From: an uncultured Clostridia bacterium
GTDB lineage: Bacteria > Bacillota > Clostridia > Christensenellales > CAG-314
Reading direction: 5' to 3'
NCBI GenBank assembly: GCA_947570215.1
Contig: CANOTO010000001.1
Coordinates: 262,735 to 326,734, forward strand
Length of the DNA: 64,000 bases
The notes under the pieces were generated by a model. The model had not been told where the DNA came from. It saw nothing but the letters and a program-made list of their open reading frames with translations, and ran no database searches. This document shows positions 26,231-30,789 of the stretch, in pieces. The position numbers and the translations under genes were made by a program. Position 1 is the stretch's first letter. Every line of letters starts with the position of its first letter.

Positions 26231-26306
26231 GGGGAGTTAGCTCAGTTGGGAGAGCATCTGCCTTACAAGCAGGGGGTCACAGGTTCGAGCCCTGTACTCC
26301 CCACCA
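26231..26306 (+). tRNA. tRNA-Val (UAC)
   Basis: GGGGAGTTAGCTCAGTTGGGAGAGCATCTGCCTTACAAGCAGGGGGTCACAGGTTCGAGCCCTGTACTCCCCACCA, with anticodon loop CTTACAA. Confidence 0.9.
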
Positions 26307-26383
26307 TACAGTGCCCGGTCGAACCTTTTAGGTTAGGCTGGGTATTTTATTTAGAAACACGCATTACGGCGTGTTTTTTGCAT
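26300..26383. repeat. att-like direct repeat, left copy (tRNA-Val 3' end + flank + terminator)
   Basis: CCCACCATA..GCCCGGTCGAAC..TTTT...GGGT.TTTATTT..GAAACACGC...GGCGTGTTTTTTGCA recurs at 30463-30547. I estimate roughly four fifths identity by eye. Confidence 0.7.
26356..26380 (+). terminator. Terminator of the tRNA cluster
   Basis: AACACGC-ATTACG-GCGTGTT followed by TTTTTT. Confidence 0.7.
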
Positions 26384-26656
26384 TTAATGGGGCGTTGTGT
26401 GTCGTCAATTAAGTTTTCTTTATTTATATGAGTTCTATTAAATAAATTTGTATGAGAAATGAAATTATCACGGGTATTGACACGGTGTGGTATAATGTAA
26501 TTAGGGAAAGTGATTATTCATAGCGAACGCACTACACAATGTAACGCGTTCGCTTGTTTATTGTTACGTAACATTCAAACTGTGGGGCCTGAATTAAATT
26601 TACGTTGTTCAATATATTACTTTCCTGTATTTTACAAAAAGGAGAAATATATAATT

Positions 26657-27244
26657 TTGAATGTGTTTGATAATATCAGAGACAAAGTGTTAAGCCTGTT
26701 CAATCAAAACGGTTGGATAAAGTGGATACATGAAGGAACAATGCGAGCCTACGACAACGAGGATAAAAAGTCAAATATAATATATGCAAGTAAAAGTAAT
26801 CACTGCGCCAAATGCCTTAATATGAACGGTTGCTGCTTTCCTAGAAATAATATGCCGAATTATCCGTTGCATTACAACTGCCATTGTTGGTTAATGCCTG
26901 TAAACAATATACATTTTGAAGCAACAAGTACTAACGAGAAATTTACTATAAATATTTTCAATCCAACGGAAACGAACGGCAAAATTGTGTTGTTTGAAAG
27001 TTTAGGATATGATAAAATGGATTATGAAATGCTAATTGATTTGTATTGCAAACAGGCCAAAGAAAAATACTCTAACGGGGATTTTATTTTAGGTAAGTTA
27101 GACAACTTTGGTCAACGTATCAATATTGTCATTGCATTACCAAGTAAAGATGGAAGCCGAATTAAATATGTTAAGTCGGCTTGGATGGTCTATCCTGACG
27201 GAAAAATCAAATTAATAACCGCAGACGGAGGGAAAGTAAAATGA
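26657..27244 (+). CDS. MuF C-terminal stub fused to an uncharacterised ~115-aa C-terminal domain (candidate toxin, module A)
   Basis: The probable start is TTG at 26657, about 12 nt after GGAG. The ORF-track start at 26510 lies upstream of a leader hairpin. CAKCLNMNGCCFPRNNMPNYPLHYNCHCWLMP matches the C..C..lnG.vF...P.HpNCrC end of phage Mu F / SPP1 gp7 head-morphogenesis proteins. The rest of the protein belongs to no family I can name. Confidence 0.6.
   Translation: MNVFDNIRDKVLSLFNQNGWIKWIHEGTMRAYDNEDKKSNIIYASKSNHCAKCLNMNGCCFPRNNMPNYPLHYNCHCWLMPVNNIHFEATSTNEKFTINIFNPTETNGKIVLFESLGYDKMDYEMLIDLYCKQAKEKYSNGDFILGKLDNFGQRINIVIALPSKDGSRIKYVKSAWMVYPDGKIKLITADGGKVK
26786..26928. repeat. 143-bp perfect direct repeat, copy 1
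   Basis: Checked base by base against 29589-29731: identical. It covers the MuF CxxC...HxNCxC motif. Confidence 0.95.
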
Positions 27245-27639
27245 AAGAATATGATTATATAAAGTTATTGGTTGAAAAAGAGCGATATGCCAAAGACAAC
27301 GTACATAAAGGCATGACGGGATGGATATGCGACGAAAGAATAATAAATGATTGTCGTCTAGTTTGTTTTGATAATTGTGATTTGGAAGACTATCCTATAA
27401 TCTCCATTAAAATCGAAGACATGGAAGTAATTTGGAGCGCACCGACAAAAGACATCGGTACTGAAGTCATTTTATCCGTCAGCAATTACGAGAATATCGG
27501 ACTACATAGAGGACTGAAAGGAACAACCATTGCAAAAGGTGAAAAAGACAATCAATGGATTGTACGTTTTCACAAACAAGACGGGTTACAGCAAGAAACA
27601 GAATGTACACTTAACGAAAGCGACATAGTAATTATCTAA
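27241..27639 (+). CDS. Small protein with two SH3-like halves; candidate immunity/antitoxin of module A
   Basis: ATGA overlap with the upstream stop. The two halves (YDYIKLLVEKERYAKDNVHKGMTGWICDE...VCF and GTEVILSVSNYENIGLHRGLKGTTIAKG...VRF) look like an internal duplication. It is a paralogue of 30043-30441. Confidence 0.65.
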   Translation: MKEYDYIKLLVEKERYAKDNVHKGMTGWICDERIINDCRLVCFDNCDLEDYPIISIKIEDMEVIWSAPTKDIGTEVILSVSNYENIGLHRGLKGTTIAKGEKDNQWIVRFHKQDGLQQETECTLNESDIVII

Positions 27640-27640
27640 A

Positions 27641-27671
27641 ATTCGTTTTAGGTTGTGAATACCCCACCATA
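27641..27671. repeat. 31-bp module-end repeat containing the CCCACCATA core (middle copy)
   Basis: ATTCGTTTTAGGTTGTGAATACCCCACCATA versus 30441-30471 ATTCGTTTTAGGTTATCTAATTCCCACCATA. Confidence 0.7.
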
Positions 27672-28157
27672 ATAAACCCATAACCCATTATTTTTGACTT
27701 CAACATCATTTAACGCTGATTGTATCATCGTTGAAAATGCTGATATTCCCCATGTCTCCCAAGCGCCTTTTATGTTTTCCGCCACGATGTTGATAATATT
27801 AGTTCTTAATGTGTAATACGATGTATTCTGAATAAATAATTCACCATAAGTTTCAGTCGCGCGCGGTGCTATCGTTAAAGTATCGTAAAGTGCTTTTTCT
27901 ACTACGTATTTAGTAATATCTAACTCTTTTATAAAACCGCTTTCATTATTTGTAATTGAAAACAGTCCTACATTTAAGCCATAACGTATAGTACCACTTA
28001 CGCTTCCGCTTGCTAAGATAGTAGATGCGTTGATTAGTATTTTGTTGATATGGTCGATTTTTTGGTTTGTAATAATCTGACAATTATTTGTTGTGATTTT
28101 TGAACTGCTGCTACGTGGGGTTATCCACGCATTATTTGCCGGAAAAATAGATGCCAT
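27648..28157 (-). CDS. Hypothetical protein (169 aa), AT-rich island gene
   Basis: Long ORF with GGAGAAGAAAAT upstream of the ATG. No motif recognised. Confidence 0.5.
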   Translation of the reverse strand: MASIFPANNAWITPRSSSSKITTNNCQIITNQKIDHINKILINASTILASGSVSGTIRYGLNVGLFSITNNESGFIKELDITKYVVEKALYDTLTIAPRATETYGELFIQNTSYYTLRTNIINIVAENIKGAWETWGISAFSTMIQSALNDVEVKNNGLWVYYGGVFTT

Positions 28158-28207
28158 ATTTTCTTCTCCTTATTGACATTTAATGATTTTTAATGTATAT
28201 TTTGATT

Positions 28208-28585
28208 ATGAAACGATTAAACAAAAAGCAGATTGTCTTCGGCTCAATCGCATTAGGTTGCCTTTTATTTTTAATCTATATCCTTATCTGCCCTTTGGGT
28301 TATTTAAGCAATAGATATTTTTGTTACTTTTCAGAGCAACACAAAATTATGAGCGTTGGATTTGGAACAAAGTTTGACAGAAGTGGCTTTGACAATCCTT
28401 TTGTTGTGTTAGGTTATATTAACGTTCCACAAGTCGTTATCTTTTGTGCTATATCACTGATTTTGATTGCTTGCATCGTACTTGTTTGTAAAAATACGCC
28501 CCGTCGCCCGACTAAGGCGGAACGCCTGCAAGCACAAATCGACGAACTGCAACAGCAGGTTGACGAGTTGAAGAAAGGGGACTAA
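28208..28585 (+). CDS. Hypothetical two-TM membrane protein with a C-terminal coiled coil
   Basis: MKRLNKKQIVFGSIALGCLLFLIYILICPLGY..., a second TM segment VVIFCAISLILIACIVLV, and the tail AERLQAQIDELQQQVDELKK. Confidence 0.5.
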   Translation: MKRLNKKQIVFGSIALGCLLFLIYILICPLGYLSNRYFCYFSEQHKIMSVGFGTKFDRSGFDNPFVVLGYINVPQVVIFCAISLILIACIVLVCKNTPRRPTKAERLQAQIDELQQQVDELKKGD

Positions 28586-28678
28586 CTCCCCTTTCCTTAT
28601 GCTGCTTCATCATTGTGCATTAAAAAAGGACGATGCCTATCGCCCTTAATTTTTATATTAAAAAAGATTGACGTCTGC

Positions 28679-28863
28679 TGTGAACCCCAAAAGTTGGATA
28701 AATAATATAGTTAGATTTGATGTGAATGAGTTCGGTACTGTACCGGACTCATTCCGTTTAGTGTTAGAGATATTCTCTTGTTATTCCAATAGTTGATGTA
28801 CTCTTTCAGACGGTGGACGAATTCGTCCACTGTCTGAAACTTTTCACCATAGTACATTATCGT
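28679..28863 (-). mobile_element. IS3-family insertion-sequence remnant (3' end of the transposase ORF plus a putative terminal inverted repeat)
   Basis: The C-terminal ~50 codons read ...YYGEKFQTVDEFVHRLKEYINYWNNKRISLTLNGMSPVQYRTHS, the typical IS3/IS150 OrfB tail. TGTGAACCCCAAAAGTTGGA at 28679 is a plausible IR starting with TG. The rest of the IS is absent. Confidence 0.6.
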
Positions 28864-29472
28864 CGTGTAATTGCCCGAGTTAGTCAACCGCGGTATTGCG
28901 TCTATGACCGCCCCGATTTGCACAAGGCACTCCCACAACGTCGTTTGCGTGTTCCACTTAAACTGCGGAGACTTAATATTCTTTAACGCATACACCACCT
29001 TGTTTTCAACCGTCAACGAATATTGCGCGGTTTCGCTTTGTCCGTAGTCGAACGGGACAATATCGAGCAACCGCGTTACAACGTCAAACAAGCTGTCGCG
29101 CTTATCTACCGCTTCGGGCTGCGTTACGCCTATGCCGTCTATCAACACGCCTTCAAGTGTTTTACTTGGCTCTACCAGTGCCACTTCGTGCGAATATATG
29201 CCCTGTTCGTCATCGTCCGCTCGAGCCAACGCTCTGTTGTCCGTCCCCACATACCAAAAGATTTCCCATTCCGTCGGAGAATACCGTACGCTTACGTTGT
29301 AATGCGCAAGCGGGGCGACCATACCTTTGCCGTGCGCTTCCGTCTTCAAATACCGCAGCGTTCCGCTGTCTAACTCTGCACCCAACTGAAACACTAAATC
29401 TATCGGCGACTTGGCTCGCAATTCGCTCTCTAAGCCGCCTTCATTTTTCAACAATCTTGCTTCTACGCTCAT
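28711..29472 (-). pseudogene. Chimeric ORF: N-terminal ~200 aa of a phage tail/minor structural protein fused in frame to the IS3 transposase tail
   Basis: The start MSVEARLLKNEGG follows AGGTGGACAA. The middle part ...YSHEVALVEPSKTLEGVLIDG...SLFDVVTRLLDIVPF...PQFKWNTQTTLWECLVQIGAVIDAIPRLT resembles N-terminal regions of siphophage tail-tip proteins. The junction is near 28863. Confidence 0.5.
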
Positions 29473-29588
29473 TTGTCCACCTACCTGTTTTGCCCGGACA
29501 GATATCCCGCGCGCCGAGCCAATTCGCTTGCGTTGCGGTTCTGCCACATAATCGGTGTGTGATATTCTTGTAAAAGAGTGCATGCGCG

Positions 29589-29731
29589 GCAAGTAAAAGT
29601 AATCACTGCGCCAAATGCCTTAATATGAACGGTTGCTGCTTTCCTAGAAATAATATGCCGAATTATCCGTTGCATTACAACTGCCATTGTTGGTTAATGC
29701 CTGTAAACAATATACATTTTGAAGCAACAAG
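29589..29731. repeat. 143-bp perfect direct repeat, copy 2
   Basis: Identical to 26786-26928. Confidence 0.95.
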
Positions 29732-30059
29732 CAATTTGCGTAAGTTCGAAGAATATGCTTTAAAATTCAAACCCGTAAACGATAAAAGTGGATTGTTTTT
29801 AAAATGGGGCTATGATATAATGGATGCAGATTGGTTATTGCAAGAATATTGCCGTCAAGCGCAGGAAAAATATGCTAACGGAAAATTTACTCGTTTTAAA
29901 TTAGATGACTTCGGCCAGCATATAAATATTAAAATAACATTGCCACGCAAAGACGGGAAAGGCAGTGTCACATTAACGTCGGGTTGGTTAGTATACCCCG
30001 ACGGAGAGATTAAGCTAACAACACCATATGGAGATAAGGAATATGAAAGAATACGATAG
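29625..30059 (+). CDS. 5'-truncated paralogue of the MuF-stub/unknown-domain gene (module B)
   Basis: The frame is open from 29574, and the first ATG at 29625 lies inside the 143-bp repeat. The C-terminal domain ...WGYDIMDADWLLQEYCRQAQEKYANGKFTRFKLDDFGQHINIKITLPRKDGKGSVTLTSGWLVYPDGEIKLTTPY is homologous to module A but diverged. No RBS is seen upstream. Confidence 0.55.
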   Translation: MNGCCFPRNNMPNYPLHYNCHCWLMPVNNIHFEATSNLRKFEEYALKFKPVNDKSGLFLKWGYDIMDADWLLQEYCRQAQEKYANGKFTRFKLDDFGQHINIKITLPRKDGKGSVTLTSGWLVYPDGEIKLTTPYGDKEYERIR

Positions 30060-30441
30060 CGTAAAACTAACAGTAGAAAAAGAAAAATACGCCAAAGAGG
30101 GCGTGCACAAGGGAATGATCGGCTGGATATGCGACGAAAGAATAATAAACGAGCAACGATTGGTTTGCTTTGACGGAGGAGAGGTATCTCCCTTTCCCAT
30201 ATTACCGATTAAAGAATACGATTTAGAAGTCGTATGGGAATCGCACGAAAGGCAAGTAGGAGACAAAGTTCTTTTTTTGTCGGAACAGTACAAAAACGTA
30301 GGCATTGCAAAAGGATTGCGAGGCGTATTGATTGCCAAGTTGGAAAATAACAAATGGACAATCCGTTTTCACAAACAAGACGGATTACAACAAGAATGTG
30401 ATTTGACGGTTGACGGAAACGATTTTATAGTTGACAATTAA
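30043..30441 (+). CDS. Small protein with two SH3-like halves; candidate immunity/antitoxin of module B
   Basis: MKEYDSVKLTVEKEKYAKEGVHKGMIGWICDERIINEQRLVCFDGG... is a clear paralogue of 27241-27639. The start was trimmed from 30028 to the ATG at 30043 by analogy, and follows GGAGATAAGGAAT. Confidence 0.65.
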   Translation: MKEYDSVKLTVEKEKYAKEGVHKGMIGWICDERIINEQRLVCFDGGEVSPFPILPIKEYDLEVVWESHERQVGDKVLFLSEQYKNVGIAKGLRGVLIAKLENNKWTIRFHKQDGLQQECDLTVDGNDFIVDN

Positions 30442-30471
30442 TTCGTTTTAGGTTATCTAATTCCCACCATA
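30441..30471. repeat. 31-bp module-end repeat containing the CCCACCATA core (right copy)
   Basis: See 27641-27671. Confidence 0.7.
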
Positions 30472-30547
30472 GCATTGCCCGGTCGAACATTTTGTTTGAT
30501 TGGGTCTTTATTTTGAAAACACGCAAATTAGGCGTGTTTTTTTGCAC
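30463..30547. repeat. att-like direct repeat, right copy (displaced tRNA-Val flank and terminator)
   Basis: See 26300-26383. Confidence 0.7.
30518..30544 (+). terminator. Duplicated tRNA-cluster terminator
   Basis: AACACGC-AAATTAG-GCGTGTT followed by TTTTTTT. Confidence 0.6.
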
Positions 30548-30789
30548 TATAAATAACCGGAACCGCGTGTTAGTGTTATACTATAAAGCGCCTTCGTTGT
30601 CGAGTGGATTGTTTCACTATGGAAAATGTTTATTTTACTATTTACAAATAAAATAATATACGCAAAATTTATCATGGGCATTGACCCACGTAAAAATCGA
30701 GATTACGCTATTACAATTTATTACAAATATTACATGTTTTAGGTTATCTGATTTCAACCGTCAAATCCCATAAACGAAAGTTCGTTTAT

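Follow-up and report, generated by a model that had tools for sequence, protein, structure and literature searches.

The 64,000-nt stretch of DNA analyzed here (the window), from an uncultured Clostridia bacterium, carries a pair of small overlapping genes that are referred to as A and B. Gene A (26657..27244, + strand) encodes a 195-residue protein in which a Cys/His stub derived from the phage MuF domain precedes a DUF6883 (BECR-Tox3) domain, a predicted RNase toxin domain. Gene B (27241..27639, +) overlaps gene A by ATGA and encodes a 132-residue predicted immunity protein with two SH3-like (DUF4926-like) halves, encoded at ~27241-27438 and 27439-27636. Coordinates are positions in this stretch, and calls were made with hidden Markov models (HMMs; Pfam, NCBIfam and PHROGs), BLASTP, AlphaFold2 and Foldseek. 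An earlier note on this DNA had placed both open reading frames (ORFs) and their overlap in the same way. The A protein is basic (pI 8.7) and the B protein acidic (pI 4.8). Database searches return 49 homologues for A and 26 for B, the lowest E-values reaching 1e-132, and judged by these counts and E-values the pair is far beyond chance.

Gene A is read from a TTG codon at 26657, with AAAGGAGA 9 nt upstream. Some gene callers choose instead a GTG at 26510, giving an extended ORF of 244 residues. The 195-residue start is favored because homologues from many genomes begin at the same residue (MNVF...), using ATG, GTG, or TTG. Homologues retrieved by protein search mostly have 193-199 residues, and the corresponding ORFs at surveyed genome loci have ~180-234 residues if extended to the first upstream start codon.

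Residues 93-189 of A (26933..27223, +) match the Pfam model of DUF6883 with 31.6 bits (E 2e-7), above the gathering threshold of 27, and most homologues have a precomputed PF21814 match. The earlier note had correctly suggested DUF6883 and had also proposed PBECR-type models, which fail: no Pfam PBECR model matches A at E ≤ 1. Six residues of the toxin domain (K95, K109, Y138, Q153, W176, and T188) are invariant in the homologue alignment, and the domain is basic with zero histidines. An AlphaFold2 model of A (pLDDT 89.7, pTM 0.85) shows helices at residues 94-97, 109-115, and 120-139 followed by a four-stranded sheet. Foldseek finds no significant match to this model in the PDB; the top entry is 6cp8_A, the BECR tRNase CdiA-CT EC3006 of Escherichia coli 3006, with an E-value of 0.029 and a TM-score of ~0.25. 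The BECR assignment rests on the literature rather than on structural search here: DUF6883 has been reclassified as 'BECR-Tox3', a colicin-like BECR RNase, by computational prediction only (bioRxiv 10.64898/2026.08.28.747851). An RNase toxin is a reasonably probable identity for A.

The N-terminal part of A contains the C-terminal half of a MuF/SPP1-gp7 domain (residues ~27-82; 26735..26902, +). Residues 31-80 align with positions 59-112 of the 112 in Pfam Phage_Mu_F (14.3 bits, below the cut-off of 29.6), and residues 27-82 align with positions 48-108 of the 109 in NCBIfam phageSPP1_gp7 (TIGR01641; 19.1 bits, cut-off 39.65). The homology to MuF is real, as evidenced by two further results. 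BLASTP aligns A colinearly with P0166 (32% identity, E 2e-27), a 276-residue protein that has a full Pfam MuF domain (50.5 bits) and then DUF6883, and the best viral Foldseek matches of the A model are phage 'minor capsid proteins' (E 5.6e-6). Together with the sub-threshold HMM matches, these results uphold the MuF C-terminal stub that the earlier note had recognized. Nine Cys and His residues are conserved in the stub (H49, C50, C53, C59, C60, H72, C75, H76, and C77). A profile search with the stub alone finds it on no other toxin type: all 56 of its 56 matches are a truncated or frameshifted stub with DUF6883, and no domain swapping is seen. Beyond the MuF half-domain, Pfam, PHROGs, NCBIfam, and PADLOC detect no delivery or secretion domain on A.

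The two halves of B have no similarity to each other by BLASTP, but profile-profile comparison (hhalign) relates them with 93.5% probability (E 2e-7). The halves are homologous by this measure, and the relationship is visible at the profile level only. The AlphaFold2 model of B (pLDDT 89.4) is all-beta, and its top Foldseek matches are the tandem SH3-like KIN17 (E 4.8e-5), KOW, and tandem Tudor structures, in agreement with the two SH3-like halves described earlier from the sequence. DUF4926 is the only family matched recurrently across the B family. Moreover, P0065, a relative of B with three repeats (E 4.5e-14), carries a precomputed DUF4926 match (PF16277), and single-domain relatives of 70-100 residues match the N-terminal half. 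Profile evidence of this kind identifies B as a distant relative of DUF4926; the mention of that family in the earlier note thus stands as to kinship, although the scores themselves remain below threshold (see below). Pfam detects no HTH, RHH, or AbrB domain in B, and PADLOC gives no convincing defense-system match for A or B. In some related loci, three or four B-like genes follow a single toxin gene (L001:354-3559; also L010, L041, L062, and L082), and some of the B-like genes in these poly-immunity arrays are single SH3 domains of 51-90 residues.

Several lines of evidence support a functional association of the two genes. Of 86 loci, only 4 do not have a B-like gene directly 3' of A, and two of those four are at a contig edge. 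Compared between the window and a relative that is 86% identical at the DNA level, the ratio of nonsynonymous to synonymous substitution rates (dN/dS) is 0.09 for A, 0.08 for its stub alone, and 0.21 for B. Because these ratios are low, A (stub included) and B are maintained by selection. The near-universal synteny and the dN/dS values bear out the earlier description of the module as an autonomous, selected unit.

The company that the toxin domain keeps in other proteins is also informative. A profile search of the full library gives 738 relatives, and the DUF6883-like domain is found at the C terminus of P0200 (Rhs), P0193 (CdiA-like DUF637), P0187 (PG_binding_1, peptidoglycan-binding), and P0166 (Phage_Mu_F). 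Sharing of one C-terminal domain among such varied carriers is a classic hallmark of polymorphic toxin tips, and its presence at the end of Rhs, CdiA-like, and MuF proteins strengthens the toxin reading. Furthermore, the gene that follows P0166 encodes a bona fide DUF4926 protein of 62 residues. A and B are very probably a toxin-immunity pair.

The pair appears to have its own promoter. A putative extended -10 element (TGGTATAAT; 26488..26496, +) can be read from the sequence upstream of the leader, and GGTATAAT is conserved in L001 (two copies), L007, L008, and L009. A TTGACA at 26477-26482 was considered as a -35 box and ruled out, since it is only 8 nt upstream of the extended -10. The extended -10 and the ~160-nt leader are conserved in the five closest loci, consistent with the promoter and leader proposed in the earlier note. 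The 5' leader (26503..26656, +) is predicted to be structured: it holds a GC-rich hairpin of 14 bp (26521-26554) and then a T-rich run, ~25 nt downstream of the -10 box, and a long-range GGGAAAG/CTTTCC pairing just before the ribosome-binding site (RBS) that is invariant in the leaders of the window, L001, L007, L008, and L009. RNAalifold finds five pairs with compensatory changes, and the single-sequence fold has a z-score of -3.3 relative to shuffled controls. Rfam has no match to the leader even at E ≤ 1. A role in attenuation or mRNA stability is possible.

A second copy of the module lies downstream and displays an unusual pattern of identity. Within the stub coding region of A, 143 nt (26786..26928, +) are 100% identical to 29589-29731. 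The latter segment begins an orphan toxin tip, A2' (29589..30059, +), in which the stub copy is joined to a diverged DUF6883 tip (26.4 bits, just under the threshold of 27). A2' is 5'-truncated; the only start of its ORF (29625-30059) is an internal ATG at 29625, and it has no promoter or RBS of its own. The predicted cognate immunity gene of this tip, B2 (30043..30441, +; alternative start at 30028), encodes a protein that differs at a single residue from P0056, the product of the gene that follows a full-length A2 in L087. From 26929 onward, identity between the two copies falls abruptly to 53-75% across the toxin tip and the immunity gene. The earlier note had reported a diverged duplicate 2.8 kb downstream. 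The divergence is as described, with A2' 62% and B2 53% identical to A and B at the protein level; the copy is a truncated orphan sharing an exact 143-nt segment.

A close look at sibling strains shows what this arrangement can yield. The locus of L087 differs from the window by lacking precisely the 2,803 bp that separate the repeat copies, and its flanks are 98-99% identical. Its stub is fused to the A2 tip in a full-length gene, B2 follows, and the junction is the 143-nt repeat. L088 and L089 have A1 with a B1/B2 chimera, the join being in another shared segment, close to the 3' end of B. Because L087 is a recombinant across the 143-nt repeat, homologous recombination in the constant stub switches the expressed tip/immunity pair in nature.

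The array is anchored at a tRNA gene. The tRNA-Val gene at 26231..26306 (+), identified by both ARAGORN and Rfam, is the last of a Met-Glu-Val tRNA cluster, and L007 has the same cluster upstream of its cassette. A left att-like direct repeat (26300..26382, +) comprises the tRNA-Val 3' end (CCCACCATA) and two terminator-like hairpins. At the other end of the array, the segment 30442..30546 (+) consists of a junction motif (30442-30471) and the right att-like repeat (30463-30546), which matches the tRNA-Val 3' end and its flank. The two repeats are 82% identical over 88 nt. Linkage of this kind recurs in related loci. A same-strand tRNA gene ends ≤700 nt upstream in 25 of 66 loci (L007-L086), compared with 3.5% at random control positions in the same loci, and the linked tRNAs have nine identities (Ser, Glu, Leu, Gln, Val, Met, Ile, Arg, and Gly). 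The cassette or array lies between direct repeats (33-206 nt, 82-96% identity) in 14 of 55 loci; these typically begin in the tRNA 3' end and take in its terminator. No integrase gene is seen between the window repeats or in the window flanks, nor is there one among downstream neighbors (n = 87) in the best 25 of 122 matched families; an integrase may act in trans.

The junction motif, TTCGTTTTAGGTT-N9-CCCCACCATA, is a degenerate mimic of a tRNA 3' end. It stands right after the B stop codon at 27642..27671 (+) and is repeated at 30442-30471; the window has three matches, versus 0.28 expected. The motif is found 2-5 nt after the B stop codon in L001, L002, L007, L042, L062, and L087-L089, where the proteins are only 40-46% identical (positions L001:1605, L002:1056, L007:6992, L042:1828, L062:652, L087:1321, and L088:166/1293/2657). 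Between the window and L007 the motif is 97% identical, versus 75-81% for the genes, and in L088 it separates tandem cassettes. It is a candidate recombination site. One match in viral contigs falls within an unrelated coding region and was judged to be chance. Similarity of the island flanks extends beyond the terminator to a conserved ATCAYGGGYATTGAC motif (30672-30690 versus 26468-26484, just upstream of the A promoter), and the true island boundary may be at this motif. In sequence layout, the whole looks like tandem accretion of integrase-less mini-islands, and an undescribed mechanism of cassette mobilization may underlie the strong tRNA linkage and the conserved junction motif.

The surroundings are chromosomal. 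The module sits in a low-GC island (34% versus ~49%) that directly adjoins the downstream side of the Met-Glu-Val tRNA cluster, and the flanking genes in the window have housekeeping roles (pullulanase, NrdD, a hexapeptide transferase, and SpoIIE); no head, portal, terminase, or capsid gene is near A or B in the window, as the earlier note had stated for head genes. Neighbors at related loci are likewise housekeeping genes (sigma-70/DnaG, ribosomal proteins, a tRNA synthetase, and CTP synthase), and no prophage or head genes are nearby in 23 surveyed loci. A tblastn search of 50,697 phage genomes gives no match, a pattern scan of IMG/VR finds no relative, and a plasmid search yields one weak match. 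The cassettes are chromosomal, not phage-borne. The A family is the norm, as a short protein, in Christensenellaceae and other gut Clostridia. A link to prophage ends, suggested in the earlier note, gives way to an association with tRNA 3' ends and att-like repeats among housekeeping genes.

The closest described relatives of this system are known from computation. The preprint that renames DUF6883 describes it as typically accompanied by a downstream DUF4926 gene, often with an N-terminal Phage_Mu_F domain, and proposes a toxin-immunity set (10.64898/2026.08.28.747851). A and B resemble that set in having DUF6883 above its cut-off, an SH3-like DUF4926-related gene directly 3', and a link to Phage_Mu_F. 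They differ from the set as described there in having only a MuF half-domain, a tandem-duplicated immunity protein that scores below the DUF4926 threshold, and tRNA-linked, recombining cassette arrays outside prophages. Because the preprint already proposes it by computation, the DUF6883-DUF4926 pairing is not new. The 'candidate new' pair of the earlier note therefore keeps its toxin/immunity character, as indicated by the tip shared with Rhs, CdiA-like, and MuF carriers, but loses its novelty as a pairing. What is new is the half-domain chromosomal form, the tandem-SH3 immunity protein, and the tRNA-linked recombining cassette arrays.

MuF toxins have been described as occurring 'exclusively' in prophage head-morphogenesis modules with a complete MuF domain (Jamet et al. 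2017, PMC5576092). The only characterized tips, Apk2 and Bxa, are a (p)ppApp synthetase and an ADP-ribosyltransferase (PMC11699363), and the biological role of MuF toxins is still unknown (PMC5576092, PMC11699363). Like MuF toxins, A has a MuF-derived N terminus and a variable C-terminal toxin, with a small (<150-residue) immunity ORF immediately 3'. Unlike them, it has half of a MuF domain and no complete one (PF04233, PF06152, or related), its family lies among housekeeping genes instead of in a head module and has no match in phage collections, and its tip is a predicted BECR RNase. By its sequence the family clearly descends from a MuF toxin, and it should not be filed as one because the full domain and the phage context are both missing.

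Other systems share parts of this design. By the criteria of Zhang et al. 2012, A resembles polymorphic toxin systems, given that the same tip occurs on differing trafficking N termini, orphan tip/immunity cassettes are present, and recombination takes place in the constant region. Unlike those systems, A has no recognizable secretion or delivery domain besides the MuF half-domain. Orphan toxin-tip/immunity modules are described in contact-dependent inhibition (CDI) and Rhs systems (Poole et al. 2011, cited in PMC5576092). Such modules consist of a displaced promoterless tip and immunity gene downstream of the main gene, with a short identical piece of the constant region. A2'-B2 is displaced and promoterless in the same manner, and natural recombinants across the shared piece are found. 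However, the constant region here has ~90 residues instead of thousands, no secretion machinery accompanies it, and all tips found here belong to one domain family.

In type II toxin-antitoxin (TA) systems the antitoxin is usually encoded first and has a DNA-binding domain that autoregulates the operon, and their toxins include BECR-fold RNases, both RelE-like and colicin-like. A and B are similar in being small overlapping genes for a basic predicted RNase toxin and an acidic predicted inhibitor, chromosomal, present in multiple copies per genome, and linked to mobile DNA. They are dissimilar in that the toxin gene comes first and the inhibitor has no detectable DNA-binding domain, and poly-immunity arrays and tip switching are atypical of type II TA. 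The cis-mobilizable elements (CIMEs) of Streptococcus thermophilus are integrase-less islands that arise by tandem accretion at tRNA att sites. The arrays resemble them in their short elements with direct repeats that include the tRNA 3' end, tandem stacking, att-like junctions, and lack of a nearby visible integrase, whereas the units here are only ~1.1-1.4 kb, hold a toxin-immunity pair alone, and are found at many different tRNAs. Direct repeats that include the tRNA 3' end, as at 26300-26382 and 30463-30546, are shared with tRNA-targeting integrative elements in general.

Taken together, the best explanation is a two-gene toxin-immunity cassette of the DUF6883 (BECR-Tox3)/DUF4926-like class. 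In the proposed mechanism, the Cys/His-rich MuF remnant would pack against the C-terminal BECR-type domain, a predicted metal-independent RNase. B, translationally coupled to A through the ATGA overlap, is predicted to bind and block A, and the pair would be transcribed from its own extended -10 promoter through the structured leader. The cassette would belong to a polymorphic chromosomal array that has the tRNA-Val 3' end as anchor and att-like repeats at its borders, in which homologous recombination across the identical 143-nt stub piece could exchange the expressed tip and immunity gene for the orphan A2'-B2. Finally, the toxin may act within the producing cell, as a type II TA-like addiction module or a phage-abortive module descended from a phage MuF toxin. 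Intracellular action appears the most likely mode because the toxin carries neither a delivery domain nor a secretion signal and is not attached to a phage, and when set against delivery to other cells it has roughly an even chance. The explanation as a whole, a TA-like domesticated MuF-toxin cassette, is favored on balance.

Several observations weigh against this explanation. Against a purely intracellular TA role, about one-fifth of the loci have extra immunity genes lacking a toxin and several have orphan toxin tips or A fragments, a pattern that is characteristic of toxins passed from cell to cell. Strong purifying selection acts on the MuF stub (dN/dS 0.08), and a plain TA toxin has no obvious need of it. 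The toxin-first order and the lack of a DNA-binding antitoxin domain, as judged by Pfam, are atypical of classical type II TA. B scores 11.6 bits against DUF4926, below the Pfam gathering threshold of 29.1, and B2 scores 11.9; only 15 of 117 B-family members reach DUF4926 at E ≤ 0.01, the best at 4.5e-4. The BECR fold of A is unconfirmed by structure search (best PDB match at E 0.029 and TM ~0.25), and a search of PDB sequences with the A profile finds no relative, its sole match being a chance one to UPP synthase (E 0.2). A literature search found no experimental work on DUF6883 or DUF4926 proteins, and just three papers name either family.

The strongest rival is a phage-delivered MuF toxin acting in trans, in which the half-domain would dock the host-encoded toxin on the portal or capsid of a resident or infecting phage for injection elsewhere, and B and its extra copies would protect kin. 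Such a role would account for the conservation of the stub, with its low dN/dS and nine conserved Cys/His residues, and MuF is thought to target the capsid, with SPP1 gp7 binding the portal (PMC5576092, PMC11699363). Delivered polymorphic toxins are characteristically accompanied by poly-immunity arrays and orphan tips, and the tip is common to Rhs and CdiA-like carriers. On the other hand, A has only the C-terminal half of the MuF domain, prophage and head genes are missing from the vicinity in the window and the 23 surveyed loci, and the family is absent from the phage genomes searched by tblastn and from the IMG/VR scan. Moreover, the stub-profile search never finds the stub on other toxin types, so it is unlike a generic trafficking module. 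Delivery in trans is an unlikely account of the pair, though one to be taken seriously. A further, distinctly doubtful possibility is that domesticated MuF-toxin cassettes form integron-like, integrase-less arrays at tRNA 3' ends, with units bounded by TTCGTTTTAGGTT...CCACCA and moved by a trans-acting recombinase, and with a half-domain that functions in phage conflict. In variants of this scheme, the RNase could be loaded into passing phage capsids, or the half-domain could sense phage by binding the portal and free the toxin from B to abort infection.

The two remaining alternatives are effectively excluded. A decayed prophage or integrative island at tRNA-Val that has lost its function, with ORFs surviving by chance, would fit the low-GC island beside tRNA genes and att-like repeats, the IS3 remnant (see below), the truncated second copy, and the many frameshifted family members; it is very improbable given that copy 1 is intact and under purifying selection, that many genomes conserve the 193-199-residue architecture together with its start site, promoter, and leader, and that A-B synteny is near-universal. 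Least probable of all is an ordinary phage head-morphogenesis (MuF/gp7) structural protein next to an unrelated small phage protein, a reading that draws on weak PHROG 'head morphogenesis' and gp7 matches and the Foldseek 'minor capsid proteins' and is contradicted by domain boundaries and genomic context, because the head-morphogenesis/gp7 matches span ~55 residues and are below cut-offs, most of A is DUF6883, no portal, terminase, or capsid genes are nearby, and the phage genomes searched by tblastn contain no homologue.

If the domesticated-cassette explanation is right, it shows that phage capsid-borne toxins can be converted into autonomous cassettes. The half-MuF lineage lives in the chromosomes of gut Christensenellaceae and other Clostridia and swaps its toxin tips by recombination. 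With 195 and 132 residues, A and B offer a compact system in which to probe DUF6883 as an RNase, the DUF4926-like SH3 protein as its inhibitor, and the role of the MuF Cys/His sub-domain.

MuF genes in a comparable setting are seen elsewhere. A metagenomic contig (L091:2345-4383) has two consecutive short MuF-domain genes with no head genes visible; one encodes MuF-DUF6883 and is followed by a DUF4926 gene, and the other encodes MuF joined to an unknown domain, with a Cys_rich_CPCC gene next to it on the downstream side. Arrays of MuF-tipped toxins may thus occur more widely outside packaging modules.

The filler between the two cassettes of the window (27672..29588) contains three ORFs and is absent from L087. 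The first ORF (27648-28157, - strand, 169 residues), itself absent from L087, has only a weak PADLOC 'homing endonuclease' match (E 7e-4). The second (28193-28585, +, 130 residues), also absent from L087, encodes a predicted membrane protein with a C-terminal coiled coil and is preceded by a promoter-like site at 28173-28201 (11/12 match). The third (28711-29592, -, 293 residues) is chimeric: its last ~50 residues are the C terminus of an IS3 transposase (Pfam rve_2, NCBIfam IS3), and its first ~240 match nothing in Pfam, NCBIfam, or phage genomes. A fragment of it (28870-29592, -) was considered as a phage tail remnant and dropped, as it has no match in phage genomes. The chimeric segment has a GC content of 51% within the low-GC island, and its 3' end bears a near-perfect palindrome (28804-28839) and a strong hairpin (28724-28754).

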